Source: a virus. Taken from it: a stretch of 64,000 nucleotides of DNA. The notes beneath the pieces were generated by a model. The model ran no database searches. It was not told the DNA's origin and saw only the letters and a list, made by a program, of their open reading frames with translations. This document shows positions 3,314 through 55,733 of the stretch, one piece after another. The stretch spans positions 64,001-128,000 of IMG/VR virus record IMGVR_UViG_3300033802_000463. The stretch is one strand, 5' to 3'. Within the stretch, counting starts at the first letter, position 1. Each line of letters begins with the position of its first letter. A program made the position numbers and the translations under genes.

Positions 3314-6300
3314 TTACATCAATGATGCCATGTTGTATCTTAAATAATTGTCGATCTCATCGCTGCGATCTTGCTGGTATTGGATCCCAATCCGTGTTGT
3401 GGATCCGGTATTGGGAGTCACCATGACATTGACATTTTTTAACCCTTGTCCTTCCAACACTTCTTGGATAGTGCGGCGCACTCTTTTGTAGCTGAATCCT
3501 TCGTTCTGATACAGATCATTTCCATAAGGCGTTAGATCTGGCGCCAGACGGGAGGCTTCAACATCATCCGGCCAAAAGTTAAAGTCGGAGAGATCCAGTT
3601 GCTGATTTTGAACCACTTTCAATTTGATGCTCTCCAAGTCAAATTCTGGCCGCCATCCTTCCCAATCTGCATCTGGAAGCACGTACTTTTGGAAGTATTC
3701 TTCAAGCGGCGGAACTTCTTCATCTCCATAGCCCCACAATGCTTTGTATATCCGCCTTTGATTTCTCGGAACAAGTTCCAGAATCCTCTCCCGGTCCCGC
3801 TCCGGCGCATTTACAAATTCGTCGAAAAACCACCGATCTTTCGTTGGAAAGGCGCGGGCAACCTTCATGCGATCGTCATACGGATCGATAGCATATAAGG
3901 TTTCTTCACTTTTCTCCTTATATTGTAACGCTTGACGTACAATATCGGGAAGTATTAATTCATCCCAACGGCTCTCTTGAATTTGAGCAAGCTCCTGATT
4001 GATTTCTCTTCGGCGTTCCTCCCAACCTTTGGGCTGAGTAATATACAGCCGCCGCTTTTCTTGCTCCAACTCATATCGGCGCTGCTTAACTTCAGCTTCT
4101 TTTTGTTCAATGTCTGCGAGTAGTGCTTCAACATCATAACCTTGTGCAGCGGCTTCTCGCTTAGCAGCCTCATACAAGCCAGTATATTTCATATACTTCA
4201 AGATGTCGAAGTATTCATTGATGTCATGCTCGATCCGTCTCCGTTTCGGGATCCATACTTCTCCATCATGAGTATATTCGTAGTGCCTTGCATATGCATG
4301 GCCGAGACCGCCAATCAGTGCTCCAACGATGGCTCCCGCGCTAGTGCGTCTTTTACCGCCTCCGCCCAGCACGGCCATAATCACCCCGCCGATTAAACCG
4401 CCGCGCATCATCGACTCCAGCAGATCGTGACGAAACGCAGCCTGGAAGCTTGGGATCAAGTAGTCACTTGTCAGGAAGTTGCGCCAAGTTGCCCAATCCT
4501 TTCCGTAAATCTGGTCTCGCTCGTATTCTTCAAGCGCTGTGCGCACTTGCAGAAATTTGGTATTTAGCGCCGATTCAAAATGCGCGATGGATTCCCATCT
4601 TGCTCCTTCAGCGATCTCATCAGTTGTAAAGCGCGCGTGAACCGCCGGCGCCGAGAAATCCGTCAGATTCTCTTTCATCAGGCCGCGGCGCAGGATTTCC
4701 TGGTTGATGTTTTTCAAGCCATCAAAGACAACGGCGCGCATCGTCTGATACGTATCATCTGATATTCGCCGGCTTTGATCCGCATCAACACCGATTGTGA
4801 TTTTATCCCCTACACTGATATAAGATTGCAAAACACCTTCCGCATTCGGCCGATAATCTACGCCGGCAAGCCGAATTGGCGTATCCCCAAATTCCTTCGT
4901 GAGAAACGTGTAATCATCCAGGAACTTGGTCACAGTTACTTGATATTTTTCAATATCTGCATATTTGAATCGGTAATCCACAAATTCATATTTTTGTTTT
5001 CGCCTCGCAACTTGCCGTTTAATCTCGGCGATTTGTTTACGAAGTTCCGGATCCGTAACGTTGGCCACCACATAATCGCGCCAAAATTTATATTCATCAC
5101 TCCATGGCGCCACATCAGCCAGAATTTTGAACTTGTCGAATGCACCGTAACGTCCGGTTTCATCCGGATGCAGCGTATTCAGTTTTTCATATGCTTCACC
5201 GGGCAAGCGATATTCTCCATGCTCAATTTTCGTGTAGGGATCGCCTACCTGGAAATTGATAAAGTAATTTGCTCCGGGGAGCCAATCTGGCATTGTGTTG
5301 CGAACCGGATTATAAGTATCCAGCTGCCCGTCATCGCGTCGAATGAAACGCCGGCCAATTTCGGAGACTGGTCCTCCGAGCGAACCAAGATTCATTCCCC
5401 AAAAACGGTTTGACAGGTTATTGGCTGCATCCGCTTTTTGGATGACCATTTCGCCTGCATAGGTGTTGTCTCCGACGACCTCCTCAAACATCCACTTGTA
5501 AACCCCAAGCGGTTCTGTCCAGTTTTGCGCAGTTTCTTGGATTCGCCAATTGAGACTTGTCGGATCATTCAATTCGCGCAGTTTTCGATTACGCACTTCG
5601 TTTTTGTACGCAAACTCCTCGGTTCTAAGTGCGCGCGGACTTGTATCCAATATGGGCTCGATTGGAGCAGCCATTGCAAACAGCTGATCAATGGAATAGT
5701 CTTCTTTTGCAATGCTGGACGGCACATAGATTGCTTGTCCGCTGGCGATTTCTTGCGCCACATAGGCACCTGTCGGATTTCCTTGGTCGTCTAATTCATT
5801 GGCGACAAAATATCGGATACCTTGCTCTTGACCGATTGTTTCCTCAGCTCCAGTCAAACCCGCAGCATAAGAGGATCCGTAATCGGTTGGTCCCGCATAA
5901 ACGATATGTTCAATTCGGCCGGCTGGAGATATGCGAGTCACAACCGGTGCCGTCGGTCGATCACCAAGTTCCTGATTTTCAGCATCAACCAAGACGGGAT
6001 CGCCCCAATACTCCGGATGCATATAGCGCGATGGCTTGATCAGCTGTCCGATCGTCGCATTCCCAATATCACCAAAAAACATCGTGTTCGGGTTAAACAG
6101 AGAACCGGTAATCAAGTAAGGGCGATCATAGTAGTGTTTTTGTTCCCAGTAATATTCATTTCCGTTCAGGACTCGTTTGAAGATCCCAAGCGGGTTTTCA
6201 AAGGTCGGCAAAATGTTCATTTCACCGTACCGTTCTTCGCCCGTCAGGTTTGTATTGGAATGTTCCCAATCACTCATCGCCAAACGCCATGCATTCGGTC

Positions 6301-9214
6301 TGAACTCTGTAATGCGATCGCCGCGATAAGCGGACTTGGAGCCCCACAGCCACCACCGGCTCTTACGCACCTCATCCACGCCATTCATCAGATAATCCGC
6401 GTACTCTTCAGCCGTGTACGTATCCTTCTCATCGATCGGCACAGTATTGCCCGTCAGAATATTGCCAATTGCTTCGATGGGGCTTCCGGATGTAAAGACA
6501 GCACCAAGAACATGCCCAGGTCCAAATTCACCAATCCCGGGCAAATACCATTCAGGCATCGCATCAAAATGCTCAATGCCCGGGTAAAGCATGCGTCTTC
6601 GAGCAAGGTCATCATTGACACCCATAGCATCTCTTGCCATGGCTGCCTCCAGATTTTCTCTTGCCCGCATGTTCTGCCATCTTGCTGTGATTCCCATGCC
6701 GGTATGTTTCTGCAGCTCATAATCGGCATATTGATAAGCTTCATACCCCAGATAAATTGGCAAAAATCGCTTCAAGAACAGAGATGATACGGTTTTCAGC
6801 GGACTGGACAGTGAATCCTGCGAAAAGCCAAGCCCCCAATCGCCGAGCGCATCCTGCAGACGGAACCATGGATACTGGCCGCCAAAAATCGAAAGTGTTG
6901 TGAAATCCTCCATATTTCGCCGGCCTGTGGTCCAGCTGAGCTGCTTCGCAATATCTTTGATGGTGTTGATGCCATCCCATCCGTTAAAGGCCTTGTTGAC
7001 ATATAAAAACTCGTCATTCACCAGGTTCGGCGGCTTCTGTCCTGTGAATTTTTCATAAATCGGATTCGTGCGTCGTACCGCTCTTAATACATCTTCACGA
7101 AATTCTTGAGAAAATGTGCCTTGTCCTAAAATCAAATGATTGACACTATCAACGGCAAAGGCTGGATTATCGTAAAACTGTGAGCTGGCTCGACGCAGCA
7201 GATGATGATTGAGCAGGAAATTTGCGTTTTGCGCATCGGCCGACAAAATGTCTCCGCTCCGATACAAGTCATTGAAGATCTTTCTGAGATTTAGATTGGG
7301 ATGACTTGCGTTATTCTCCGTTATCTGACGAATCAGCTCAAGACTAACTTCTCTCCGGATCCGATCGTGTCCGCTTTGAATCCGGGTATACTCATCAACA
7401 AGTAAGTTGCTCTCGCCAATCGGCCGCTTCGCCGCAAGGAACGAGTCCGGATCACGGCTGTACTTGCGCCAGATTTGGCGAATGACTTCTCCGGATTGAC
7501 TTTCCTGATAATTTTCTCCGAAGAATCGAAACAGCTTCATGATATGTTCTTCATTGGAGAAATTAATGCCGTTCTTCTCTAAGAATTGCTGAATATGCCC
7601 CGGCAGATACGTGCGAATCCTATTTAGCACACGCGGCGACAGCTCAACACTGTATTTATCAAAATAGCCGCGAAGCGCGCGCAAGCTCTCCTCATCAACA
7701 CCGCGATGCATGGCAGTGGTTACGATATTGCGCTCCCATTCTGGGTTCCAAATCTTTGTGATTTGGCTAAGCAGCTTGGGGCCAATCGCATCCTTGTCTT
7801 GCCGACCCAAATCGAATAACTTTTTGAATCGGCCGCGCGTATCTTCTTCGATATCCATAATGCCGCCTGTGCTGCGGTGAATTTTTGCGATCGTACCGAA
7901 GCGAGAGGATGTTGCATACATCTTTCGATGAGGATTAAGAATCTCCAAGGCTCGGGTTGGATCATTGACGGCCGCGGTATCCATCAATCTCACAAAGTCT
8001 CCGTTGATGAATACCAGATCCTCGTCCAGCGTACTGTTGATGTCTTTTCCCATTTGTGCAAGAAGGCTTTGATGGCGCGCTCCCATCGATACAACACGAA
8101 AGCTTCCGACTTCCCTTGCTTCCCGGATATTGATTTGATCCCGCAGGTGAAGCAGTCCGCCGGGCACCGTATTAGCTGCCTTTTTCTTTAGACCGAACAT
8201 CATCTCGTCGAATACTTTGTAATCCGTATAATCAATGATGTTTCCTGCGCTGTCGGTTTTGACATACAAATTGGCATCGAAGATTTGTTTGCGAAAATCA
8301 TCATGCCGGCGAATCATGTCATTAAGTTGGGCGACGGAATCCGCATCCAGCTGTATTCTTCCCGAGCTGTGCATAGCAAGAACATCTTCAACGGTTGCTT
8401 GCCGCTGTCCGCGAATATACCGGCTGAATGCAAATTCCCGCTTTACGACACCTTCTGCATTTGCTGCTGCCATTGTTTTAAGTTTGTCTTGCATGACATT
8501 AACGTATTGGCGAAACTCATCGCTGGTTCGGTAATTTACATTTCGCAATGCGTTCCGTGCATCCAATGCATGATCGATCAGGCTTTGTTCAATGCCCTGC
8601 TGATGCAAGAGTCCGCGAAGCTGATCGTCAGTATAATGACTCAAAAATCCAGGATCTTCCCGCCAACCAACCTTCATTGCCTCACGAACACGCTGCATGG
8701 GCGCGTTGCCAGCGCGCCGTTCCAGCTCCAGCATTACATCGCGGAAGCGAAGCCGATTTTCAATGCGGTAAGGGATATCATTTTGCAGCCGCTGATTGAC
8801 TTGCCGAATATACCGCAGCATATCGTATTCATTTTCCGGATCCCGCGCAGTAGCAAAATCGCTAAATTTGGACCTACGTTCATCCACGATGCGCCGGCGC
8901 CGCTCTGCAAAGTCACGCATCATTCTATCCAGGCGAGAAACGCTCATATCTTGACGCAACGCTCCCTGATGATCGAGCGTTTCTCGCAGGGCTAGAAGCG
9001 ACCCCTTTCCTTCAATCTCAAGAAATCGAGCAAACCGTTTCAGTGCTCCGATTCGATGCAGGACCGCTAATGCACCGACGCCAATGGCGGCATTAACAAG
9101 CAATGAACGAGCAGGCGATTGATCATCTTCGTCACTTGTCAAGAAGCGCGTAAGAGGCCGTTCATCTGTGCCATAATACTGCGCATACCTGGATTGTCCT
9201 GTTTCATCCGCCAT
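3314..9214 (-). CDS. Giant tape-measure-position virion protein (~1966 aa) with SNase/thermonuclease-like domain and hydrophobic segments
   Basis: Lies directly downstream of two chaperone-like genes. Contains VTKFLDDYTF...IRLAGVD...DTYQTMRAVV...NQEILRRGL and Gly-rich hydrophobic stretches. Start placed at ATG 9214 from the AGGTG RBS. Confidence 0.7.
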   Translation of the reverse strand: MADETGQSRYAQYYGTDERPLTRFLTSDEDDQSPARSLLVNAAIGVGALAVLHRIGALKRFARFLEIEGKGSLLALRETLDHQGALRQDMSVSRLDRMMRDFAERRRRIVDERRSKFSDFATARDPENEYDMLRYIRQVNQRLQNDIPYRIENRLRFRDVMLELERRAGNAPMQRVREAMKVGWREDPGFLSHYTDDQLRGLLHQQGIEQSLIDHALDARNALRNVNYRTSDEFRQYVNVMQDKLKTMAAANAEGVVKREFAFSRYIRGQRQATVEDVLAMHSSGRIQLDADSVAQLNDMIRRHDDFRKQIFDANLYVKTDSAGNIIDYTDYKVFDEMMFGLKKKAANTVPGGLLHLRDQINIREAREVGSFRVVSMGARHQSLLAQMGKDINSTLDEDLVFINGDFVRLMDTAAVNDPTRALEILNPHRKMYATSSRFGTIAKIHRSTGGIMDIEEDTRGRFKKLFDLGRQDKDAIGPKLLSQITKIWNPEWERNIVTTAMHRGVDEESLRALRGYFDKYSVELSPRVLNRIRTYLPGHIQQFLEKNGINFSNEEHIMKLFRFFGENYQESQSGEVIRQIWRKYSRDPDSFLAAKRPIGESNLLVDEYTRIQSGHDRIRREVSLELIRQITENNASHPNLNLRKIFNDLYRSGDILSADAQNANFLLNHHLLRRASSQFYDNPAFAVDSVNHLILGQGTFSQEFREDVLRAVRRTNPIYEKFTGQKPPNLVNDEFLYVNKAFNGWDGINTIKDIAKQLSWTTGRRNMEDFTTLSIFGGQYPWFRLQDALGDWGLGFSQDSLSSPLKTVSSLFLKRFLPIYLGYEAYQYADYELQKHTGMGITARWQNMRARENLEAAMARDAMGVNDDLARRRMLYPGIEHFDAMPEWYLPGIGEFGPGHVLGAVFTSGSPIEAIGNILTGNTVPIDEKDTYTAEEYADYLMNGVDEVRKSRWWLWGSKSAYRGDRITEFRPNAWRLAMSDWEHSNTNLTGEERYGEMNILPTFENPLGIFKRVLNGNEYYWEQKHYYDRPYLITGSLFNPNTMFFGDIGNATIGQLIKPSRYMHPEYWGDPVLVDAENQELGDRPTAPVVTRISPAGRIEHIVYAGPTDYGSSYAAGLTGAEETIGQEQGIRYFVANELDDQGNPTGAYVAQEIASGQAIYVPSSIAKEDYSIDQLFAMAAPIEPILDTSPRALRTEEFAYKNEVRNRKLRELNDPTSLNWRIQETAQNWTEPLGVYKWMFEEVVGDNTYAGEMVIQKADAANNLSNRFWGMNLGSLGGPVSEIGRRFIRRDDGQLDTYNPVRNTMPDWLPGANYFINFQVGDPYTKIEHGEYRLPGEAYEKLNTLHPDETGRYGAFDKFKILADVAPWSDEYKFWRDYVVANVTDPELRKQIAEIKRQVARRKQKYEFVDYRFKYADIEKYQVTVTKFLDDYTFLTKEFGDTPIRLAGVDYRPNAEGVLQSYISVGDKITIGVDADQSRRISDDTYQTMRAVVFDGLKNINQEILRRGLMKENLTDFSAPAVHARFTTDEIAEGARWESIAHFESALNTKFLQVRTALEEYERDQIYGKDWATWRNFLTSDYLIPSFQAAFRHDLLESMMRGGLIGGVIMAVLGGGGKRRTSAGAIVGALIGGLGHAYARHYEYTHDGEVWIPKRRRIEHDINEYFDILKYMKYTGLYEAAKREAAAQGYDVEALLADIEQKEAEVKQRRYELEQEKRRLYITQPKGWEERRREINQELAQIQESRWDELILPDIVRQALQYKEKSEETLYAIDPYDDRMKVARAFPTKDRWFFDEFVNAPERDRERILELVPRNQRRIYKALWGYGDEEVPPLEEYFQKYVLPDADWEGWRPEFDLESIKLKVVQNQQLDLSDFNFWPDDVEASRLAPDLTPYGNDLYQNEGFSYKRVRRTIQEVLEGQGLKNVNVMVTPNTGSTTRIGIQYQQDRSDEIDNYLRYNMASLM

Positions 9215-35843: not shown

Positions 35844-36791
35844 CAGTTGTGTTACGTCCCACCCGCTTCCGATAGGACTCTGCATGTTTCCATGCAGCTC
35901 AGACTATATCATCACCCTCTTTTGAGGGGCCGGGCGCTTCGAGCTCGCTTGAACCCTACTCCCTTGCGGGATAGTCGTTGCACCTTCCTGCCTTCTGGCA
36001 GGCTTGGCTCAGGATTGCCCTCGTCTTTACGTTAGGGGTTTCCCTGAGTTCACCCGGTTTTATTCGACGGGATTACTCCCGAAGGGGACTTAAATTGTTA
36101 ACATATCGCTCGAACTTTTCGAGCTTTCGGTGAAGATAGATTGTTGATCCATCGTACAAATACCGATGCATTTTCTCAACATTCTCTCTGGAATGAATGC
36201 TTAACATCCATGCTTGGCTTTTCACGTTTTGATCCATTGCTTTCTCGGATAATGAAACCCCAGCTTCTGTCTCTAACGTATTAGCCAATTTTTCAAGAAA
36301 CTTCTTGCCGCCAATAAAATCAATTCTTGCTCTGTTGCCATAGAGCTTGATGCTACCATCACCATCGAAGAACCCTCGAACATAGTGTCTCATCAAGCCA
36401 CCATGAAGATCAGGAAAATGATCATTGAGTGTTTTCTGAGGCACGATTCCTTGGTGCATCAAAGCCTCACAGAATGGCTTAGAATTGATTTTAACTGTGC
36501 AGCTCGTGTATTCTTTTCCGTTTGCTCTAATGAGCTTGTCGGACACCTTATAGGTTGAATCCACGGCTTCGTTGAATTTTATCAAATGATCTTTATCCTT
36601 ACCAGATAAATTCATTTGAAAGCGGTAGGTGGTTTCCTGGATGTAAATGCATCCATCTGCCTGAATGAATCCCAGCCAATATGCTTTTGCCTCAGAATCA
36701 ATCGCTTTGAAGTAATCTTCATTCACATGATTTCTTCTGGCATTTGCATTATAGCCTCGACCCATTCGTTTCACCTCTATGCCACTTTTCT
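35844..36791 (-). mobile_element. Group I intron in terL
   Basis: P GAACTCAGGGAAACC, Q AATCCTGAGC, R GTGCAACGACTA, S GATGATATAGTCT. Exon 1 ends in U (GGGAU) and pairs with IGS GUCCC; the intron ends in G. Splicing restores IIGVDWD|KYG. Confidence 0.92.
36073..36765 (-). CDS. Intron-encoded LAGLIDADG homing endonuclease
   Basis: Two motifs YWLGFIQADGC and YVRGFFDGDGS; own RBS GAGGTG. Confidence 0.9.
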   Translation of the reverse strand: MGRGYNANARRNHVNEDYFKAIDSEAKAYWLGFIQADGCIYIQETTYRFQMNLSGKDKDHLIKFNEAVDSTYKVSDKLIRANGKEYTSCTVKINSKPFCEALMHQGIVPQKTLNDHFPDLHGGLMRHYVRGFFDGDGSIKLYGNRARIDFIGGKKFLEKLANTLETEAGVSLSEKAMDQNVKSQAWMLSIHSRENVEKMHRYLYDGSTIYLHRKLEKFERYVNNLSPLRE

Positions 36792-42135: not shown

Positions 42136-42213
42136 TGGTCGGGACGGCAGGACTCGAACCTGCGATCCCGCGCTCCCAAGGCGTGTGCGCTAACCAAGCT
42201 GCGCTACGTCCCG
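42136..42213 (-). tRNA. tRNA-Pro(TGG)
   Basis: Cloverleaf, CT-TGG-GA loop, CCA encoded. Confidence 0.9.
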
Positions 42214-42219
42214 CTATGA

Positions 42220-42308
42220 ATCAGGAGGAGGATTCGAACCGCCGATATTGACACCCATTCTCTTCGCGAGCAGGAATCGAACCTGCGTGTCAATACCCCA
42301 TGCCTGAT
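42220..42308 (-). ncRNA. tRNA-like element with two T-arms and no anticodon arm
   Basis: ATCAGG/CCTGAT closing stem; GTATTGACAC/GTGTCAATAT stem; GCAGG-TTCGATT-CCTGC and GGCGG-TTCGAAT-CCTCC. Confidence 0.5.
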
Positions 42309-42309
42309 A

Positions 42310-42398
42310 TGGCGGATGGAGAGGGATTCGAACCCCCGTAGACTTTCGCCCTAACGGTTTTCAAGACCGCCCCGTTATGACCACTTCGGTATCCATCC
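42310..42398 (-). tRNA. tRNA-Ser(TGA)
   Basis: Long variable arm, CT-TGA-AA loop, GCCA end. Confidence 0.92.
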
Positions 42399-42401
42399 GA
42401 A

Positions 42402-42474
42402 TGCTGCCGAGAGGAATCGAACCTCCAACCTGCTGATTACAAGTCAGCTGCTCTGCCTGTTGAGCTACAGCAGC
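42402..42474 (-). tRNA. tRNA-Thr(TGT)
   Basis: CT-TGT-AA loop; CCA not encoded. Confidence 0.9.
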
Positions 42475-42480
42475 AGATTA

Positions 42481-42556
42481 TGGCGGAACCGACGGGATTT
42501 GAACCCGCGATCTCCTGCGTGACAGGCAGGTATGCTAACCGCTGCACCACGGTTCC
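42481..42556 (-). tRNA. tRNA-Asp(GTC)
   Basis: CT-GTC-AC loop, GCCA end. Confidence 0.92.
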
Positions 42557-42566
42557 GAATGAAGAA

Positions 42567-42639
42567 TGGATCCTGCAGGACTTGAACCTACAACCAACCG
42601 GTTATGAGCCGGCTGCTCTACCAGTTAAGCTAAGGATCC
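42567..42639 (-). tRNA. tRNA(CAT), probably Ile2 rather than Met
   Basis: CT-CAT-AA loop; body resembles Bacillus-type Ile2; lacks initiator features; CCA not encoded. Confidence 0.8.
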
Positions 42640-42640
42640 A

Positions 42641-42716
42641 TGGCTCCCCGAACAGGACTCGAACCTGTGACCCGCAGATTAACAGTCCGCTGCTCTACCG
42701 ACTGAGCTATCAGGGA
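42641..42716 (-). tRNA. tRNA-Asn(GTT)
   Basis: CT-GTT-AA loop, GCCA end. Confidence 0.92.
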
Positions 42717-42717
42717 A

Positions 42718-42792
42718 TGGCACCGGCTCAGGGATTCGAACCCCGACTGACGGTTTTGGAGACCGCTGTTCTGCCAATTAAACTAATCCGAT
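42718..42792 (-). tRNA. tRNA-Trp(CCA)
   Basis: CT-CCA-AA loop, GCCA end, one acceptor-stem mismatch. Confidence 0.85.
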
Positions 42793-42802
42793 TTGATGAA
42801 AA

Positions 42803-42888
42803 TGGGAAAGGAGAGATTCGAACTCCCTGCGTTTCTAATGTGCCGGATTTACAGTCCGGTGCCACTCCGCCATTGTGACCGCTTTCCC
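42803..42888 (-). tRNA. tRNA-Tyr(GTA)
   Basis: CT-GTA-AA loop, long variable arm; CCA not encoded. Confidence 0.85.
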
Positions 42889-42893
42889 ATGGA

Positions 42894-44255: not shown

Positions 44256-44441
44256 TCATGTTCGGCTTTCATAATAAACACCTGCCGCTTGCAGAAGCTC
44301 GCGGGCAAGTGAAAATCGGCCAAACCAATAATCATCTGAGGTCCGTACTTCTGCGTTTTTATATTCGTTTTTAATTCTGTCAATCAGTTCCTGGAACTTT
44401 TGCGGATCCATGTGCATCCTCCTGTCAATTGTGATAAACAA
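44256..44441 (-). CDS. Small hypothetical protein
   Basis: ORF in operon; true start probably at MDPQKF after GGAGG. Confidence 0.45.
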   Translation of the reverse strand: MFITIDRRMHMDPQKFQELIDRIKNEYKNAEVRTSDDYWFGRFSLARELLQAAGVYYESRT

Positions 44442-44808
44442 TCCAATCGTCAGCCATCATATCGTCGCCATCTGCCGTGTATTCTGTCGGCTCATGTCCC
44501 GGAATCACGATCTGCTCCATGATCGTTCCCGTATTTTCATCCAGATACAGATAAGAATTGATTTTACTAAATCGTGTTACTTTCCATCCAGACTTGACCA
44601 ATGTCAGTGCGATGCTGAAATCAAAGTGCCTCAGATACTGAAGATCTTCATTATTCGGAACAATAATCAGCACTTTGCTGTCGCCAAATTGCTCTTGCCA
44701 TGCTTCGGCAAACCGAGCTGCATCTTCATAGGGCATATCGCCGGCTTTAAGAACATAAACCCCCTGAACATACTGAGCCCGATGAATATACTCTTGCAAG
44801 AGCTCCAT
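44425..44808 (-). CDS. DUF2829/Tad2-like domain protein
   Basis: FDFSIALTLVKSGWKVTR...DDMMADDWIV. Confidence 0.55.
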   Translation of the reverse strand: MELLQEYIHRAQYVQGVYVLKAGDMPYEDAARFAEAWQEQFGDSKVLIIVPNNEDLQYLRHFDFSIALTLVKSGWKVTRFSKINSYLYLDENTGTIMEQIVIPGHEPTEYTADGDDMMADDWIVYHN

Positions 44809-45002: not shown

Positions 45003-45368
45003 TCACCTCCTTTCGGATTCGTTGCGGTTTCCTGCCTTTCTCTTTAACCGACTATTCTTTTTGTACTGGCTTCGCTTCACTTTACAGGATGAACAATAGA
45101 CCGTCGTGCGGTCATTTTCTTTCCCGCACATGACGCAGAGTCCTTTCTCCAATCTGTCTTGATATTGCTTTTTCTGATAGTGCTTTTGGCAAAGACCTGC
45201 GCCAAATGCTTTGCGGTTGCATTCCGGCTCACTGCATGTACCCGCTTCTTTTCGCATGACCGCATTCGCATCCCCATAACGAAGCTCACGCCTGTAGTGC
45301 TTCCAACACTTCCCCCTGGCGACAACTTTTTCTTCTGTGCATCCTTCGACACTGCAGCCCATCTCCAT
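45003..45368 (-). CDS. Cys/His-rich Zn-finger repeat protein
   Basis: CSVEGC...CWKHY, CSEPEC...CQKHY, CVMC...CSSC. Confidence 0.65.
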   Translation of the reverse strand: MEMGCSVEGCTEEKVVARGKCWKHYRRELRYGDANAVMRKEAGTCSEPECNRKAFGAGLCQKHYQKKQYQDRLEKGLCVMCGKENDRTTVYCSSCKVKRSQYKKNSRLKRKAGNRNESERR

Positions 45369-45374
45369 CCCCCT

Positions 45375-45548
45375 TTACTCAAATACATCATCTCTACATT
45401 GTTGTTCTTTGATACTCCTTACACGGATTCGAATCTTCTTGTCAGCTTGGATCTTCTTCTCAGCCTCCTCTCCTGAAGAAGCCTCAACAAGTGCGAAATA
45501 AATCGCTCTCAATGGCGGAATTTCGTATTCCACACCGTAGGTACGCAT
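45375..45548 (-). CDS. Small hypothetical protein (first gene of left arm)
   Basis: RBS GAGGGTGG; MRTYGVEYEIPP...; downstream of TTGTCA-18-TACAAT. Confidence 0.5.
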   Translation of the reverse strand: MRTYGVEYEIPPLRAIYFALVEASSGEEAEKKIQADKKIRIRVRSIKEQQCRDDVFE

Positions 45549-45572
45549 CACTTTTACCACCCTCTTTATCTT

Positions 45573-45602
45573 ATTGTAATGCATTACATTACACTTTGAC
45601 AA
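45573..45602 (-). promoter_or_regulatory. Leftward sigmaA-like promoter overlapped by TGTAATGCATTACA
   Basis: TTGTCA-18-TACAAT on the minus strand; palindrome at 45575-45588. Confidence 0.55.
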
Positions 45603-45720
45603 GACAGAAAAAACCCTATATAGCCCCAAATTTTTATAAAAAAATTTTGGGCCAAGCCTCTTCATTTGACACTCTGGAAAAAACCCCATATAGGGCCATT
45701 TTTATAAAAAAAAATTGCGC
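45595..45720 (+). repeat. Imperfect 70-bp-period tandem duplication at the strand switch
   Basis: Two copies of TTTGACA-N17-TATAG-GC-rich-TTTTTATAAAAAAA(A)TT. Confidence 0.7.
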
Positions 45721-45809
45721 GTGGTAGTAGGTTTCCTTGAGTTGGGTATGGGCGGCGTTCGGAGCCCCACCCACCTCTAATACCAAATACGATGAAAGGA
45801 TGATTTCGC

Positions 45810-45992
45810 ATGGCACAACAAAAACAAAGACTGAAACTGATCATGGAGTATCTGAAGGAGAACGGGAAAGCTGTTCGATTTGGTGACCTGATGAGACAAG
45901 GATTCTATTCCTTTGTCATCAAGATGGTGGCTGAAGAAGTGGGAGCAAAGCTTGATTATGACGATCAAGGGTACAGCATCATCGCCTTCTGA
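45810..45992 (+). CDS. Small hypothetical protein (first gene of right arm)
   Basis: RBS AAAGGA; 60 aa. Confidence 0.6.
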   Translation: MAQQKQRLKLIMEYLKENGKAVRFGDLMRQGFYSFVIKMVAEEVGAKLDYDDQGYSIIAF

Positions 45993-46008
45993 TGATGCTC
46001 CCTCTCTT

Positions 46009-46063
46009 GCCTGCACCGTGCTGGCCTCCCCGTGGCGCAGGTGGATACCCAACCAACAGCACG
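46009..46063 (+). ncRNA. Minimal HDV-like (theta-type architecture) self-cleaving ribozyme
   Basis: P1 GCCUGC/GCAGGU with G1-U wobble; J1/2 AC; P2 CGUGCUG/CAGCACG; P3 GCC/GGC; L3 UCCCCGU; GG for P1.1; J4/2 CCAA. Confidence 0.85.
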
Positions 46064-46164
46064 ATTGGCACGCTGATGACAGTATGCGTGTTCAATTAAA
46101 ACCTGTCACACCAATCAGGGTTGGCAGTGATCCCGCAAAACTGACCATAAGAAAGGAGTTTAAC

Positions 46165-46698
46165 ATGAAAAACGCAGCAGCAAACATCAAATTCGGTTAT
46201 GAGCTGAAGAACGCCCTGGGCAAGATTGTGGTTATGCCAAGGGCACACAAGGCAATGGTAATCGGCAAGTCTGTAAGCAAGGGCAAGATGGTTTTCGATG
46301 CAGTTGTGACCTATGGTGGCAAGGCTCTGAACGCCGTATGGAAAGGCATCAAGTGGACCGGACGCATGCTCTGGAGGAATCGTGCAGCGATTACCATTGG
46401 TGCAGTGTCGGCTATTGCAGCCGGCGCCATGACGAGTAGCATGACAGGTGCAGTCATGGCAGCTTCAGCAATTGCTCCCGCAGCGATGATGGCATGGGAT
46501 TCGATTATTGCATCGATCCGGGAACGCAAGATGCAATTCCGCTTGAATCTGAGGAGGATGTTGAATGCATCCATTGCGGGATCCATGTTCCCTTGCTTGT
46601 TTATCTATGGCTTCTTTGGCCTGGCGCTTGCTTTGGATTATGCCTTCTATGCTGCACTGGATGGGCTGTTCTATAGCCTGGTGCTGTTCTACCTGTAA
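46165..46698 (+). CDS. Membrane protein
   Basis: RBS AAAGGAG; several hydrophobic helices. Confidence 0.7.
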   Translation: MKNAAANIKFGYELKNALGKIVVMPRAHKAMVIGKSVSKGKMVFDAVVTYGGKALNAVWKGIKWTGRMLWRNRAAITIGAVSAIAAGAMTSSMTGAVMAASAIAPAAMMAWDSIIASIRERKMQFRLNLRRMLNASIAGSMFPCLFIYGFFGLALALDYAFYAALDGLFYSLVLFYL

Positions 46699-46975
46699 TT
46701 AGGTAGACAGTACAGGTGATGATGCATATGCCTGACGTGATGACGACGGATGAAGGCATGGTGTAGGCGTCACCAGGCGCGGCGCAGGCATGCGCGCCCT
46801 ATAAATACATGGCTGTTGGATTGATGCCTCCATTACCGGCATCCGCAGTGATGACAAGCGCATTGTTATCCGTATTGGCCACTCGTCATGATGGCCCGCA
46901 GTAGCGCCGGCGATATAGGTGCTCTTTGTCGTTTAGTGGGAATCACCCGCCGGCATCGTACCCGTCATTTGCAGA

Positions 46976-47108: not shown

Positions 47109-50100
47109 ATGCAACAAAATCAAATCAACAAGTTCATGTCTGCAGCTGATGTTCTTGGTGCTTTGGCTTCCTTCCCGGGCATCCGTGAAGGCGGCAAGAA
47201 CTTTGATCTCGTAACCAGTGCTATGACGGAGGGGAACAATATCTTGAACATTCTGCGTGACCCGGTTGGTATTGCAGGGATTGCGCCTCAGCAAGCGCAT
47301 CATTTCGCTCGCTTTGTTGAAACCTACAAGGATCAGCTTCCAGAACGCTTGATGCCGAAGAAGCGGGATTCCATCCAAATCCTGATTGCAGACATCAACT
47401 TCATGAAGCGAGATGAAGATGGATGGATGGTGTCCACATTTAAGTACAATGATCCAACGAAAGACAACGGATTTGACTTCAAGAGTGAGAATCAAATGGC
47501 TGATGTATTTGCATCGGAGCCGGTTATTCTGCAAATTCGCCGCAAGTTTAACAAAGGCGAGATGGTTGTAGAGAAGCGTGCTCGTCTGATGCATGACATT
47601 GTAACGGTCAACATGAACTGGGTCCTGGAGGAAGGCCAATCCGAGCCGACCGCCGAGCAGCTGGCCATCCAAGCGGAGCTGATGGAAAAAGGCTTCAAGA
47701 TCATGATGAATGGTGAAGCTAAGTATTGCAAAATGATTCAGCAAACCAACAGCCAGGCACGCCAAGTTATGGCCAATTTCTTGGTTTGCGACAATGAGTT
47801 TGATGCTGTTCCTGAGTTCTTCATGAAGCTGGGACACAACCTTGTTGCTTATGGAAAGAAGAATGCAGATGGAACCATTACGATTGATTGCACCAAATAT
47901 ATGAGCCGTATTGGTCTGTCTGGAACCAGCTCCATCCTCTGCCGCGCCATTCAAATCGGAGATCAGATTCAAGAGAATGGAGATGGCAGCTATTCCATCC
48001 TGGGTGGCAATATGACGATGCGTGTTCAGCCGGATGTGCATGTCATGGTTCGCATCGGCAAATATAAAGTCATCAATGCACAAACCAAAGAGTTTGAAGT
48101 CTTCGATGCTTCCGAACATCCGGTAAAGATGGTGGCTGGCGATGGCCTGATCTTTGTAAACAAGCGTATGTATAAGGCACTCGTTGCTGAACATGGCGTT
48201 AATGTCGATGCTTGGCAAGTTCGGATTACGCCGTTTGGCAAAGGGCTGGCTGTCTATGTCCCTGGCCTGGAGAAAACATTCGAGGAAGATATTGTGGCAT
48301 TTAGCTCCGCCATCAAAGGTGACTTCCGCGATGTTGTAGGCGTACACAAGATCCAATTCCGTGTCGCACTTTTCAATAAGCCGGCCAAGAAGATTAAGAA
48401 GTATACGGAGTATCCGTATCAATTTGTCCATGGAACCAGCCTGACTGCTGAAGATATGATGAATCTGGTAAAACCTCATATGGAGAAAGTCAAGGCAATG
48501 CTTGAAGATCCGGAGCTTCTGATGGATTATCTTGGCATGGATCGTCTGGAAGGTGCATCCGACGAAGAACTGGACAAGGCACTGGTGACAACGTTGATGA
48601 CATTCCTGCATGAGGCGCCGTTCACTTACAAGGATGTCCAAATGAAGAAGTATGCAATGCAACACATTATGGACATGATCAAGAACTGGGTTGTCGGTTC
48701 GATCCCTGTTGAAGCCAATTACAAGTTCATGGTTCATGATCCGCTGGCCATCCTGGAGACGCTGCGCTTGGATCGCTTGCTCCCAGGCAAGCTGCGTGAT
48801 GAAGATGGCGATCTTGTTATTCCTCCGAATGTGGGCTTGCCTGCAGGTACGGTTGTCGTTCGTGATATGAATGACGAGTATCTTGAAGGTGAAATTGGCA
48901 TGCAGCGCAATCCGTTGATTGCCAAGAGTGAATCTGCGGTTGCTGTGGCTATGAAAGATCCGAAATATGTTCGTGTCGGCCATTTCCGTAATCTTTGCGT
49001 CATGAGCGTTCATGACTTCAATACCGCAAAGCAAGGTGGAGCCGACAATGACGGTGACAAAACACTGGTTATTAAGGATCCTGTGATCATCAATGCCATC
49101 AAGCGCAATGCTCACCTTCCTGCCCTGCTGGATATTCATGTGGTTGAATATGTGGATGGTCAACCGGTATTCGATAGCGGCTGCCCGAAATCCTGGAGCG
49201 CGAAGCCAGAGAATGTGTATTCCATTCCCGCTCCCATGATTGTTAAGCAAGACGGCTTCAAAGTGACATTCGCTAAGGATCAGTATAATGAAACGCTCAT
49301 TAATGAGCTTCATAAACTAACCAAGGATTACATCACTCGCACACTGAAGCCGAACCAAATCGGCTTGTTGACCAATTATGCCACGAAGCTTGCAGATGCC
49401 GTGCGTTCACTTGGTTATCAATACAAGCTTGGCGTAGACAAGGATGGTCTGCCGCTTTCTCAGAAAGATAAGCAAGACATTCTGAATAAGATCAAACAAT
49501 TCGAAGAATGGATTGATCTTCTCCGCCTGTGCCAAGGATGGGAGATTGACGCCGCGAAGCATGGCGGTGCATTCTGGGAGGCGCTTGAGAATGAGCTGAG
49601 CTTCATCAAGAATCCGCCGGAGGAAGTTGGATACGTTAGCGAGAAGACCAGCAGGACTGTATGGTATACGCCGGACTGGATGGCTGAGCGCAATAACAAA
49701 GAATTTGGTGTATACACCGGTTCGGTTCTTTCCCGCTTGTTTGTCGATATGGTGAAAGAACGCGCTGACATCTCGAAGTTTGTTGATGAAATGGACAAGC
49801 GTTCTGAAGGAGCCAACATTTACGGTGAGCTGAATGCAGCGATTTCCATGTCTCCGGAACGTTATGAAATGATCAAGGCACATGTGGTAGACATCGATCG
49901 TGAGTATCGCATGGGTATGCAGAACCTTATCAAGAAAGAATCCGAAGCAATAGATCGCGCGGTCGCTCTGGCTGAAGGCAACAAGCACAAGCTGGAGTAT
50001 CTCATGGAAATGGTTCATACCAAGATGAAAGAGGAACGAGCTTTGCTCATTGAGTCCTGCGCCGCGCAGCTGGAGAAGCTGGAAGATGTATTTGCGCCGG

Positions 50101-50540
50101 AAGAGATCGGATTCGTGGCTTACAAGCTCACTTATATTGACTCCAAGTCTGAATCCACTTCTTTCCCGTGGACCGTAGCTAAGCGTCAGTTCCTGGCAAC
50201 TTGCCAAGTTGCGGCCGGCAAAAATCCATCCCGTCTGCCGAAGATCGCAACACGCAAGGCCGACGCGGAGATTAACCTGATGCTGGTGAATCCGAAGCAT
50301 GCAGAGTTGATCGATCGGGCAACGCGCAATGGTTATATGGACGTGAAGTTGGTGCAAGATCAATTAACCGGCAATCTGGTGTATGCCGTTGGCGTCGAGA
50401 ATGTCCTGCTTGGCTATGTATACAACAAGTCGGCCATTTGGTTCTCTGGCGCAGCGCAAGCTCGTGTATATTTCTCTGAACATCGCTACATGTCTCAGAA
50501 GTCGGCTGCAATCAGAGCAACCACTATCAATCTTGCTTAA
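47109..50540 (+). CDS. Single-chain two-barrel RNA polymerase, YonO/eukaryotic-RdRP family
   Basis: GDGLIFV...AWQVRITPFGKG, QRNPLI, catalytic GGADNDGDK, IGLLTN, EIDAAKHG; RBS AAAGGAG. Confidence 0.85.
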   Translation: MQQNQINKFMSAADVLGALASFPGIREGGKNFDLVTSAMTEGNNILNILRDPVGIAGIAPQQAHHFARFVETYKDQLPERLMPKKRDSIQILIADINFMKRDEDGWMVSTFKYNDPTKDNGFDFKSENQMADVFASEPVILQIRRKFNKGEMVVEKRARLMHDIVTVNMNWVLEEGQSEPTAEQLAIQAELMEKGFKIMMNGEAKYCKMIQQTNSQARQVMANFLVCDNEFDAVPEFFMKLGHNLVAYGKKNADGTITIDCTKYMSRIGLSGTSSILCRAIQIGDQIQENGDGSYSILGGNMTMRVQPDVHVMVRIGKYKVINAQTKEFEVFDASEHPVKMVAGDGLIFVNKRMYKALVAEHGVNVDAWQVRITPFGKGLAVYVPGLEKTFEEDIVAFSSAIKGDFRDVVGVHKIQFRVALFNKPAKKIKKYTEYPYQFVHGTSLTAEDMMNLVKPHMEKVKAMLEDPELLMDYLGMDRLEGASDEELDKALVTTLMTFLHEAPFTYKDVQMKKYAMQHIMDMIKNWVVGSIPVEANYKFMVHDPLAILETLRLDRLLPGKLRDEDGDLVIPPNVGLPAGTVVVRDMNDEYLEGEIGMQRNPLIAKSESAVAVAMKDPKYVRVGHFRNLCVMSVHDFNTAKQGGADNDGDKTLVIKDPVIINAIKRNAHLPALLDIHVVEYVDGQPVFDSGCPKSWSAKPENVYSIPAPMIVKQDGFKVTFAKDQYNETLINELHKLTKDYITRTLKPNQIGLLTNYATKLADAVRSLGYQYKLGVDKDGLPLSQKDKQDILNKIKQFEEWIDLLRLCQGWEIDAAKHGGAFWEALENELSFIKNPPEEVGYVSEKTSRTVWYTPDWMAERNNKEFGVYTGSVLSRLFVDMVKERADISKFVDEMDKRSEGANIYGELNAAISMSPERYEMIKAHVVDIDREYRMGMQNLIKKESEAIDRAVALAEGNKHKLEYLMEMVHTKMKEERALLIESCAAQLEKLEDVFAPEEIGFVAYKLTYIDSKSESTSFPWTVAKRQFLATCQVAAGKNPSRLPKIATRKADAEINLMLVNPKHAELIDRATRNGYMDVKLVQDQLTGNLVYAVGVENVLLGYVYNKSAIWFSGAAQARVYFSEHRYMSQKSAAIRATTINLA

Positions 50541-52254: not shown

Positions 52255-52293
52255 TTTTACTGGCGGCATGTTTTTGCCGCCAGTGTGTGTTTA

Positions 52294-52350
52294 TCTCTGT
52301 CTGCAGAGTAACAGCTGCACTGATGAGTCTTATTGGAGACGAAATAGAGA
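52294..52350 (+). ncRNA. Type III hammerhead ribozyme
   Basis: UCUCUGUC^UGCAG-loop-CUGCA CUGAUGA GUCUU-AUUG-GAGAC GAAA UAGAGA; GUC cleavage predicted after 52301. Confidence 0.9.
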
Positions 52351-52372: not shown

Positions 52373-52835
52373 ATGGCTGATCCGTCTATTTTTTTCTTAT
52401 CAGAGATTGATTCTGCGAGTTTATATACTCGTGAAAATATTAAACGTGTAAAGGAGATGTTTGTTGAAGGGCTAAAAGCAGATGTAGAATCAAACCATAT
52501 TGATCGTCAATTGGCGAATAAATGGTTTCGTATGATGATTCAGAATAAGATGGCTTTCGCCATTGCCCTTGGGTCCGACTTTAAGGGTTTCCGTGTTGCT
52601 AAGAGCAAGTCAGATTTTCATCCTTATACGGAGAATCTGGCAATATGGCCCAGACAGCTTTTTTTATGATCGTTTGTCTAATTACGATCTTATTTACCAA
52701 GAAGTATATTCATGGAGAGGTGATAAGTTTAAGAGTGACACATTATACTTTATGTCTCGTAAGTTGAGGTTAGATGTTGGTTTGATAGGATCCCCTCGGA
52801 CGATGGTCCGGCCGCCTATTCAATTTGAAGACTGA
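52373..52835 (+). pseudogene. Hypothetical gene apparently frameshifted at a T7 run (52659-52665)
   Basis: RBS GGAGG. Removing one T joins ...WPRQLF to YDRLSNYDL..., which ends at the terminator. Confidence 0.4.
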
Positions 52836-55400: not shown

Positions 55401-55426
55401 CATTTTCAAGCGGCTTACAATGCCGC

Positions 55427-55481
55427 TGCTGTCGTAGGGTTGTGCCCTGCCTGATGATGGCTTCTCTAAGCCGAAACAGCA
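55427..55481 (+). ncRNA. Type III hammerhead ribozyme (extra U after A9)
   Basis: UGCUGUC^GUAGGG-UUGUG-CCCUGC CUGAUGA U GGCUU-CUCU-AAGCC GAAA CAGCA; cleavage predicted after 55433. Confidence 0.88.
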
Positions 55482-55511: not shown

Positions 55512-55733
55512 ATGCCTTATCAGCATACTTTGGAAGATCGCATTTACATCCTGCAGAAAACCAATCTTCCGGATGATCTTTCCTATATGCTTCAACAGGC
55601 AGATCAGTATTATGTTCAATATCTGGACAAACAAGCTGAAGAGTTGGTTGCTCAAATTGAAAAAGAGTGTGTCGCAAGGAATATCAAATTGTTTAAGCCG
55701 CTTAATTGTTTTGCGGAGCTCATTTACACATAA
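55512..55733 (+). CDS. Small hypothetical protein
   Basis: RBS GGAGGT just downstream of the hammerhead. Confidence 0.6.
   Translation: MPYQHTLEDRIYILQKTNLPDDLSYMLQQADQYYVQYLDKQAEELVAQIEKECVARNIKLFKPLNCFAELIYT

Follow-up and report, generated by a model that had tools for sequence, protein, structure and literature searches.

A predicted minimal HDV-like ribozyme between two phage cistrons and its possible role in mRNA processing

What could a minimal HDV-like ribozyme do when it follows a protein-coding gene of a phage instead of a tRNA? This question is raised by positions 46009-46063 of the window, by which we mean the whole stretch of DNA analysed here (64,000 nucleotides, bases 64001-128000 of a 136,063-bp virus record with a CheckV completeness of 69%). 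A sequence-only reading of this DNA had described a nested double pseudoknot at that place, with a 6-bp P1 ending in a G1-U pair, an AC linker, a 7-bp P2, a 3-bp P3, the L3 loop UCCCCGU and a CCAA junction, and each of these elements was found where it had been placed:

46009..46063, plus strand: predicted minimal (P4-less) HDV-like ribozyme, 55 nt, from sequence, descriptor and covariance model
46009-46014 with 46037-46042, plus strand: P1, 6 bp
Between the 5' strands of P1 and P2, plus strand: J1/2, AC, 2 nt, from sequence
46017-46023 with 46057-46063, plus strand: P2, 7 Watson-Crick pairs
46024-46026 with 46034-46036, plus strand: P3, 3 bp
46027-46033, plus strand: L3, UCCCCGU, 7 nt
C46028/C46029 with G46044/G46043, plus strand: P1.1, formed by the CC at positions 2-3 of L3 and the GG after P1
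46045-46052, plus strand: L4, AUACCCAA, 8 nt, in which no helix is possible
46053-46056, plus strand: J4/2, CCAA, its first base being the predicted catalytic C46053

The plus strand of 46009-46063 reads GCCUGC-AC-CGUGCUG-GCC-UCCCCGU-GGC-GCAGGU-GG-AUACCCAA-CCAA-CAGCACG. P1 and P2 cross each other, P3 lies inside both and the 2-bp P1.1 joins L3 to the strand that follows P1, all helices being perfect. The basal pair of P1 is the wobble G46009-U46042 (G1-U), next to the predicted scissile bond, and the base at -1 is U46008; the cut is placed between U46008 and G46009 from the architecture of HDV ribozymes, which cleave 5' of G1. The pseudoknot-free fold of the 55 nt was ordinary (z -0.41), as is expected of a double pseudoknot, and was not counted as evidence. 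A CAGUAUG at 46080-46086, with an in-frame ATG at 46084, could take the place of the 3' strand of P2 in a helix that includes two GU pairs; this may be a competing fold, or only chance.

The site was the only one of its kind in the virus record. A strict descriptor applied to both strands of the 136,063 bp returned 46009-46063 as its single match, and zero matches in the whole record when the catalytic C was swapped to A, G or U. A looser scanner again gave 46009-46063 as the sole site of the whole record, and its single match with an A decoy was this same site, read with a distal, weaker and GU-containing alternative strand of P2. In 300 block-shuffled genomes the looser scanner found 0.023 sites per genome (at least one site in 7 of the 300 shuffles, and a P2 of at least 7 bp in none). 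Such a rate still yields chance matches over very many windows, and therefore comparative evidence was regarded as decisive. No HDV-type family of Rfam 15 matched at gathering score over the window, or at E ≤ 10 over 45850-46250, where the weak matches obtained (miRNA, snoRNA, and 2dG-II on the opposite strand) were dismissed as noise. Comparison of the 55 nt with phages by blastn gave only chance-level matches, and exact patterns of 22 and 33 nt were absent from viral contigs.

Relatives of the element were sought with the window's own P3-L3-P3 core (GCC-UCCCCGU-GGC), leaving the P1 strand free; the identity of P3 and P1.1, neither of which varies among the aligned members, is thus given by construction of the search pattern. 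This core occurred 35 times in 34 loci (2 metagenome loci and 32 viral-contig loci). P1 fitted in 23 of the 35 matches and the complete fold was present in 18, as compared to a mean of 0.39 (maximum 4) in 2000 trials with shuffled flanks. The five extra matches with P1 only look like P4-bearing versions of the ribozyme, and around ten matches of high GC content, located inside coding sequence, correspond to chance. Among the 16 members that were aligned, 98.9% of the cells form standard pairs, in contrast with 28-47% when the partners were slid. As these rows were picked for pairing, the comparison with shuffled flanks is the fairer one to rely on. Changes on both sides were present in five of the six P1 pairs and in all seven P2 pairs (12 of 13 together). 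The basal P1 pair was GU in 15 members and GC in one (L001), a proportion partly due to construction, as the U belonged to the pattern used on viral contigs. Some of the family members are close kin (L011, L012a and L027; L006 and L024).

The junction that carries the predicted catalytic base could be assessed independently of the pattern. When P2 was located with no constraint on J4/2, a perfect P2 of at least 5 bp was present in 19 of the 21 distinct P1-fitting matches, and the bases preceding its 3' strand were a C at -4 in 18 of these 19, a purine at -2 in all 19 and an A at -1 in all 19. A first decoy control left the J4/2 register free and was hence uninformative (fits with C 18, A 21, G 2 and T 7). 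L4 (AUACCCAA) and the CCAA of the window agree with the family consensus (AUAACCAA followed by CNRA), neither of them having been part of the viral-contig pattern; among the other 15 aligned members, 8 had an identical L4 or one that differed by 1 nt. In addition, a covariance model (R2) built from 15 members, with the window left out and with P2 and P3 as structure, found 46009-46062 at 53.5 bits (E 1.5e-11) as its sole match in the window and in the whole record. From these comparisons it is strongly supported that 46009-46063 belongs to a real phage-borne family of minimal HDV-like ribozymes for which Rfam 15 holds no model. Family covariation and the window-free model likewise back the theta-type identity and the catalytic C46053 that had been proposed at the outset, and we consider it very probable that the element is a genuine minimal HDV-like ('isolated theta-type') ribozyme, its self-cleavage being predicted.

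The positions essential in HDV-type ribozymes comprise G1-U, the U and G of L3, P1.1, the C-N-R-A junction and the -1 base. In the window G1-U, both L3 bases, the CC/GG of P1.1, C-N-R-A and a U at -1 are all intact, and the helices carry none of the mismatches that a decayed copy should show. For these reasons it appears highly improbable that the element is only a ribozyme-derived or ribozyme-like structure with nil or negligible cleavage, serving as a structured spacer or devoid of function. The same explanation draws some credit from L001, where G1-C replaces G1-U and the family thus tolerates drift, and from the published rates of minimal ribozymes, which span three orders of magnitude (drz-Mtgn-3 vs. 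drz-Mtgn-4; bioRxiv version).

Kienbeck et al. (2024, Nat Commun, PMC10879173) define theta ribozymes as matches of a refined minimal-HDV motif, which goes back to the minimal motif described by Riccitelli et al. in 2014. According to that account, 742 of 1281 occurrences have a tRNA 3' end within ±5 nt, whereas 526 do not; of the latter, 493 are located in non-coding regions and more than 96% have the sense orientation relative to their nearest gene (PMC10879173). The premise of the sequence-only reading, that these ribozymes are typically found 3' of tRNAs, was therefore overstated. Its remark that the present element is not attached to a tRNA is right, the predicted cut falling outside ±5 nt of any tRNA 3' end, but this does not make the site unusual, as it falls in the published 'isolated' class, whose members 'likely serve unknown biological functions' in the words of the authors (PMC10879173). 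The element shares with isolated theta ribozymes the P4-less nested double pseudoknot of about 55 nt with the catalytic C first in J4/2, as well as a phage-borne (Caudoviricetes), intergenic location sense to its neighbours (PMC10879173). Hosts seem to differ: more than 80% of the theta matches reported come from gut phages and about 90% from phages of Bacteroidota (PMC10879173), whereas the kin of the window phage point to Paenibacillus/Bacillales. Compared to tRNA-associated theta ribozymes, the fold is the same and a stable helix likewise stands a few nt before the cut (the tRNA acceptor stem there, a plain hairpin here), but the nearest tRNA is 3.1 kb away and on the opposite strand. HDV and the P4-bearing HDV-like ribozymes (RF00094; Ackermannviridae, C. 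briggsae) share the P1/P1.1/P2/P3 topology and the G1-U wobble (PMC13635239), and differ by their P4 helix, which the window site lacks; no Rfam model matched the site at E ≤ 10. In those ribozymes a cytosine is reported to act as general acid, activity depends on metal ions and the mutants C58U and C57U are inactive (PMC13635239).

None of the 22 family loci scanned contained a called tRNA ending at the cut. At L026 a tRNA-like 3' half resembling a T-arm and an acceptor 3' strand, with no ARAGORN call, lies just upstream of the cut. Two family copies, at L026:3707-3773 and at L029 around 505-600, both on the minus strand, are followed within a few bases by the 5' end of a called tRNA, tRNA-Gly and tRNA-Thr, respectively. 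The neighbouring genes at ten family loci gave one weak match to a major head protein and nothing else, and pointed to no common function.

The surroundings of the ribozyme in the window are as follows:

42136-42889, minus strand: cluster of eight tRNAs, 3.1 kb from the ribozyme
45810..45992, plus strand: orf60, upstream cistron, 60 aa, first plus-strand ORF of the right arm
45975..45999, plus strand: hairpin with a 9-bp stem (AGCAUCAUC/GAUGAUGCU) and a 7-nt loop
46000..46008, plus strand: C/U-rich spacer CCCUCUCUU, up to the predicted scissile bond
46064..46164, plus strand: leader of orf177, 101 nt, with a Shine-Dalgarno (SD) sequence AAGGAG at 46153-46158
46165..46698, plus strand: orf177, downstream cistron, 177 aa, orphan, SD AAGGAG 6 nt before its ATG
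47109-50540, plus strand: gene for a YonO/RdRP-type RNA polymerase, 1143 aa, PF05183

The ribozyme is intergenic and sense to these genes, 16 nt past the stop codon of orf60, and the sequence-only reading had placed it correctly, behind the first ORF of the right arm (45810-45992) and on the strand opposite to the tRNA cluster (42136-42889), which is 3.1 kb away. The orf60 product had 13 proteins at E ≤ 1e-3 in a representative library, query included, and no Pfam or PHROG family match; a database search with orf177 returned only itself, as a gene call of 177 aa.

The frame of orf177 is open upstream as far as a TTG at 45913, and the resulting open frame (45913-46698) spans the ribozyme. The site was nevertheless judged non-coding because of the 177-aa database gene call and of the 1-nt indels that offset each other between the kept part of this leader and that of the closest related phage locus (L091). 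Both facts, together with the strong SD 6 nt before the ATG at 46165, speak against a chance likeness lying in an N-terminal extension of orf177, as compensating indels do not fit coding sequence. A chance likeness in non-coding spacer meets the low rate of 0.023 sites per shuffled genome, none with a 7-bp P2, and the agreement of L4 and J4/2 with the covarying family beyond the search pattern. Even granting the open frame through the site, and that a scan of many windows is bound to meet some chance fits, an accidental origin in either form is scarcely credible.

A stable helix precedes the predicted cut. The UGA stop codon of orf60 (45990-45992) straddles the junction between loop and stem of the hairpin at 45975-45999, and the 45 nt before the cut fold in the window at -17.8 kcal/mol (z -5.65 vs. 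shuffles). Over 18 distinct family members the median for these 45 nt was -16.6 kcal/mol, in contrast with -9.0 kcal/mol in control windows taken 150-300 nt further upstream of each member (Wilcoxon p 5e-5, a statistic that overstates independence, some members being kin). In most of the family a hairpin ends 0-5 nt before the predicted cut, and in the window the spacer at 46000-46008 separates it from the cut. Under a strict rule (hairpin end at most 10 nt from the cut) 14 of the 18 distinct members passed, and the window failed solely through an extra outer segment of the predicted helix. Upstream hairpins, terminators, stem-loops or an mRNA role receive no mention in the main text of the theta paper (PMC10879173), whereas the hairpin was seen here.

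Downstream of the cut, an SD and a start codon were found within 50 nt in 9 of 19 family rows; the leader measures 16-47 nt in most members, as compared to 101 nt in the window. The window leader (46064-46164) had no unusual predicted structure (z -0.28), and its fold, too, was left out of the evidence. The motif CTGACG was absent from it, the first plus-strand copy past the ribozyme being at 46732; an internal promoter for a phage polymerase in this leader was accordingly dropped, other promoter types being possible. One viral contig (L012) contains two family ribozymes, at 8087-8139 and 8517-8579 on the minus strand, 440 nt apart with a 104-aa ORF between them; a 4-bp P4 is present in one and absent from the other, and each comes after a long hairpin and before an SD and an ATG.

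A role of 46009-46063 in mRNA, as had been suggested from its position, is plausible and fits this anatomy. Host RNase III cuts T7 early mRNA between cistrons, and the message upstream of such a cut is left ending in a hairpin. The explanation that we find best, and hold with modest confidence, is that the ribozyme and the hairpin form a host-independent processing site between orf60 and orf177. The early rightward message would start in the divergent region near 45700 and run through the site, and the ribozyme would fold into its nested double pseudoknot while emerging. With C46053 and a bound divalent ion, the 2'-OH of U46008 would then attack the U46008-G46009 phosphodiester, and the transcript would be severed between orf60 and orf177. 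The upstream piece would end in the 45975-45999 hairpin, CCCUCUCUU and a 2',3'-cyclic phosphate, an end that should resist 3' exonucleases, and the downstream piece would begin with a 5'-OH held in a base pair of the compact ribozyme, ahead of the orf177 leader, its SD and the polymerase operon. The fates of the two cistrons would be uncoupled in this way, much as at the RNase III sites of T7. The likeness to T7 would lie in intercistronic cuts in a long phage transcript with a hairpin left upstream; the difference is that T7 depends on a host enzyme and a double-stranded site, whereas the self-cut predicted here would yield a 2',3'-cyclic phosphate and a 5'-OH. [quoted passage not shown] Operon processing of the kind proposed would suit such long transcripts. 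Nothing points to re-ligation or circularisation of the products: RtcB, a PF09414 RNA ligase and a CCA-adding enzyme were not found in the 136-kb record, a genome that is 69% complete according to CheckV.

The effect on the downstream message could also be the opposite. In Bacillus, cleavage by the glmS ribozyme leaves a 5'-OH product that sends the downstream RNA to RNase J1. By the same logic the ribozyme could act as a down-regulator, its 5'-OH letting the host RNase J1 degrade the orf177/polymerase message and limiting read-through from the earliest promoter. The likely Bacillales host, the glmS precedent in Bacillus subtilis and the long leader of the window (101 nt vs. 16-47 nt in most members) favor this possibility. 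It is judged distinctly unlikely since the 5' nucleotide is paired in P1 and buried in the double pseudoknot, which would make a poor entry for a 5' exonuclease, and since the SD and start codon that follow closely in many members suggest a downstream RNA meant for translation.

Related phages allowed the history of the locus to be followed. Blastn of 45400-46800 against phages gave no match, single-query searches with orf177 and with the polymerase returned no viral contig, and tblastn of the polymerase against phages had one match only (24.5%, in an SPbeta-like phage). By alignment of polymerase homologs, 18 loci of related phages or prophages were gathered. The closest was L091, with a polymerase identity of 76% and a matching protein that NCBI names Paenibacillus sp., on which the likely Bacillales host is based; the other relatives (Alicyclobacillus, Oceanobacillus and uncultured) had polymerase identities of 31-41%. 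Neither the family model nor the descriptor matched in the 18 loci around the polymerase gene of these relatives, and Rfam at gathering score gave only tRNAs in eight of them. The ribozyme, not being conserved at these loci, is therefore dispensable for the phage group.

In L091 the leader is kept on both sides of a gap, at 45563-45744 of the window (73%) and at 46107-46168, which matches L091 positions 5920-5979 (84%, blastn). Between the kept parts there are about 320 nt in the window vs. about 20 nt in L091, the missing block being composed of the SD, orf60, the hairpin, the ribozyme and 43 nt. In a distant relative (L103/L143) an orf60 homolog (55% identity) is encoded upstream of the polymerase gene, and in L103 a hairpin and a C/U tract come after this homolog, with no ribozyme. 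Since L091 lacks the block and L103 has the gene and the hairpin without the ribozyme, the ribozyme is a lineage-specific addition to a pre-existing arrangement of gene plus hairpin. Within the leader, two kept segments stand out, window 45713-45775 (L091 5836-5900), which reads AAAAAAAUUGCG..GGUAGUAGGU...CGUUCGG.GCCCCACCC, and window 46107-46168 (L091 5920-5979), which reads GGGUUGGCAGUGAUCCC..AAAACUGACCAU; both might belong to the promoter or the leader of the earliest transcript that runs rightward.

Outside the phage genomes, four public runs were compared as DNA contigs (X2, X5, X6 and X8), and the runs that matched the ribozyme came from phyllosphere, manure and compost. Contigs of X2 and X6 align to the window at 46018-46062 or 46024-46056 only, their flanks being unrelated. 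At their loose ends the outermost P2 pair was changed on both sides in one contig, and in another the whole P2 was swapped for other complementary strands.

These near-identical copies with unrelated flanks in two other runs, the core-identical copies in many unrelated phage contigs, two of them 440 nt apart in L012, and the absence of the whole block from L091 while its leader persists on either side would all suit a further explanation. The ribozyme would be real but a passenger or insulator of an accessory cassette of about 320 nt (SD, orf60, hairpin, ribozyme and about 43 nt), gained here or lost in L091; it would only free the RNA of the inserted gene from the resident leader, sparing the expression of orf177 and the polymerase, and its 55-nt unit would be mobile between phage genomes. 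We consider this rather unlikely. The orf60 homolog and hairpin without ribozyme in the distant relative indicate that orf60 is not obligatorily tied to the ribozyme, and no repeats, integrase or endonuclease were recognized at the block edges when the sequence was read. The cassette explanation overlaps with intercistronic processing and does not exclude it.

Two further ribozyme candidates of another class were found on the same strand of the window:

52294-52350, plus strand: candidate type III hammerhead, 38 bits, with the complete core CUGAUGAG ... CGAAA
55426-55482, plus strand: second candidate type III hammerhead, 27.3 bits, with a complete core and one extra U after CUGAUGA

Both score below the Rfam gathering score for hammerheads (48.5). 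The first has a 9-bp hairpin upstream (52260-52283) and, downstream, GGAGG at 10 nt and an ATG at 52373. The second is preceded by a hairpin at 55409-55427 whose 3' arm overlaps stem III, and GGAGG and an ATG at 55513 follow it; no hammerhead was found at E ≤ 0.1 in the corresponding region of L091.

Taken as a whole, these sites raise a broader proposal, which we put forward tentatively as possible rather than probable: hairpin, self-cleaving ribozyme and SD leader would form a portable, host-independent 'punctuation mark' of phage operons, giving a protective 3' end upstream and a cap-like pseudoknot at the 5' end downstream. This phage would use it three times with two unrelated classes (one HDV-like ribozyme and two hammerheads), in transcripts of probably non-terminating phage polymerases, and horizontal transfer would spread the 55-nt HDV unit among unrelated phages. 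If true, this proposal would provide isolated theta ribozymes with their missing function; of the published phage occurrences of minimal HDV-like ribozymes, about four in ten lie away from tRNAs and are without an assigned function. The RNA type itself is already known. The analysis adds a hairpin that recurs upstream of the cut, a contrast between relatives in which the element is present or absent, and a role in operon processing that can be tested.

The locus constitutes a clean test case: its ribozyme is perfect, the hairpin upstream is defined and the cistron downstream has a strong ribosome-binding site. It also offers natural contrasts, namely a close relative without the block and a distant one with gene and hairpin and no ribozyme, along with two hammerhead candidates in a similar setting on the same strand. 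Measured cleavage, together with its effect on both messages, would show whether ribozymes of this kind are operon-processing devices. As a natural insulator part that includes the upstream hairpin, the element might possibly be of use in synthetic biology.

Other features of the window were also noted on the minus strand. A group I intron was found at 35880-36130 (RF00028, 92 bits). At 44425-44808 lies the gene for a 127-aa protein with a Thoeris anti-defence Tad2-like domain (PF11195, E 8.5e-07), and this gene adjoins an HNH endonuclease-like ORF at 45003-45368.
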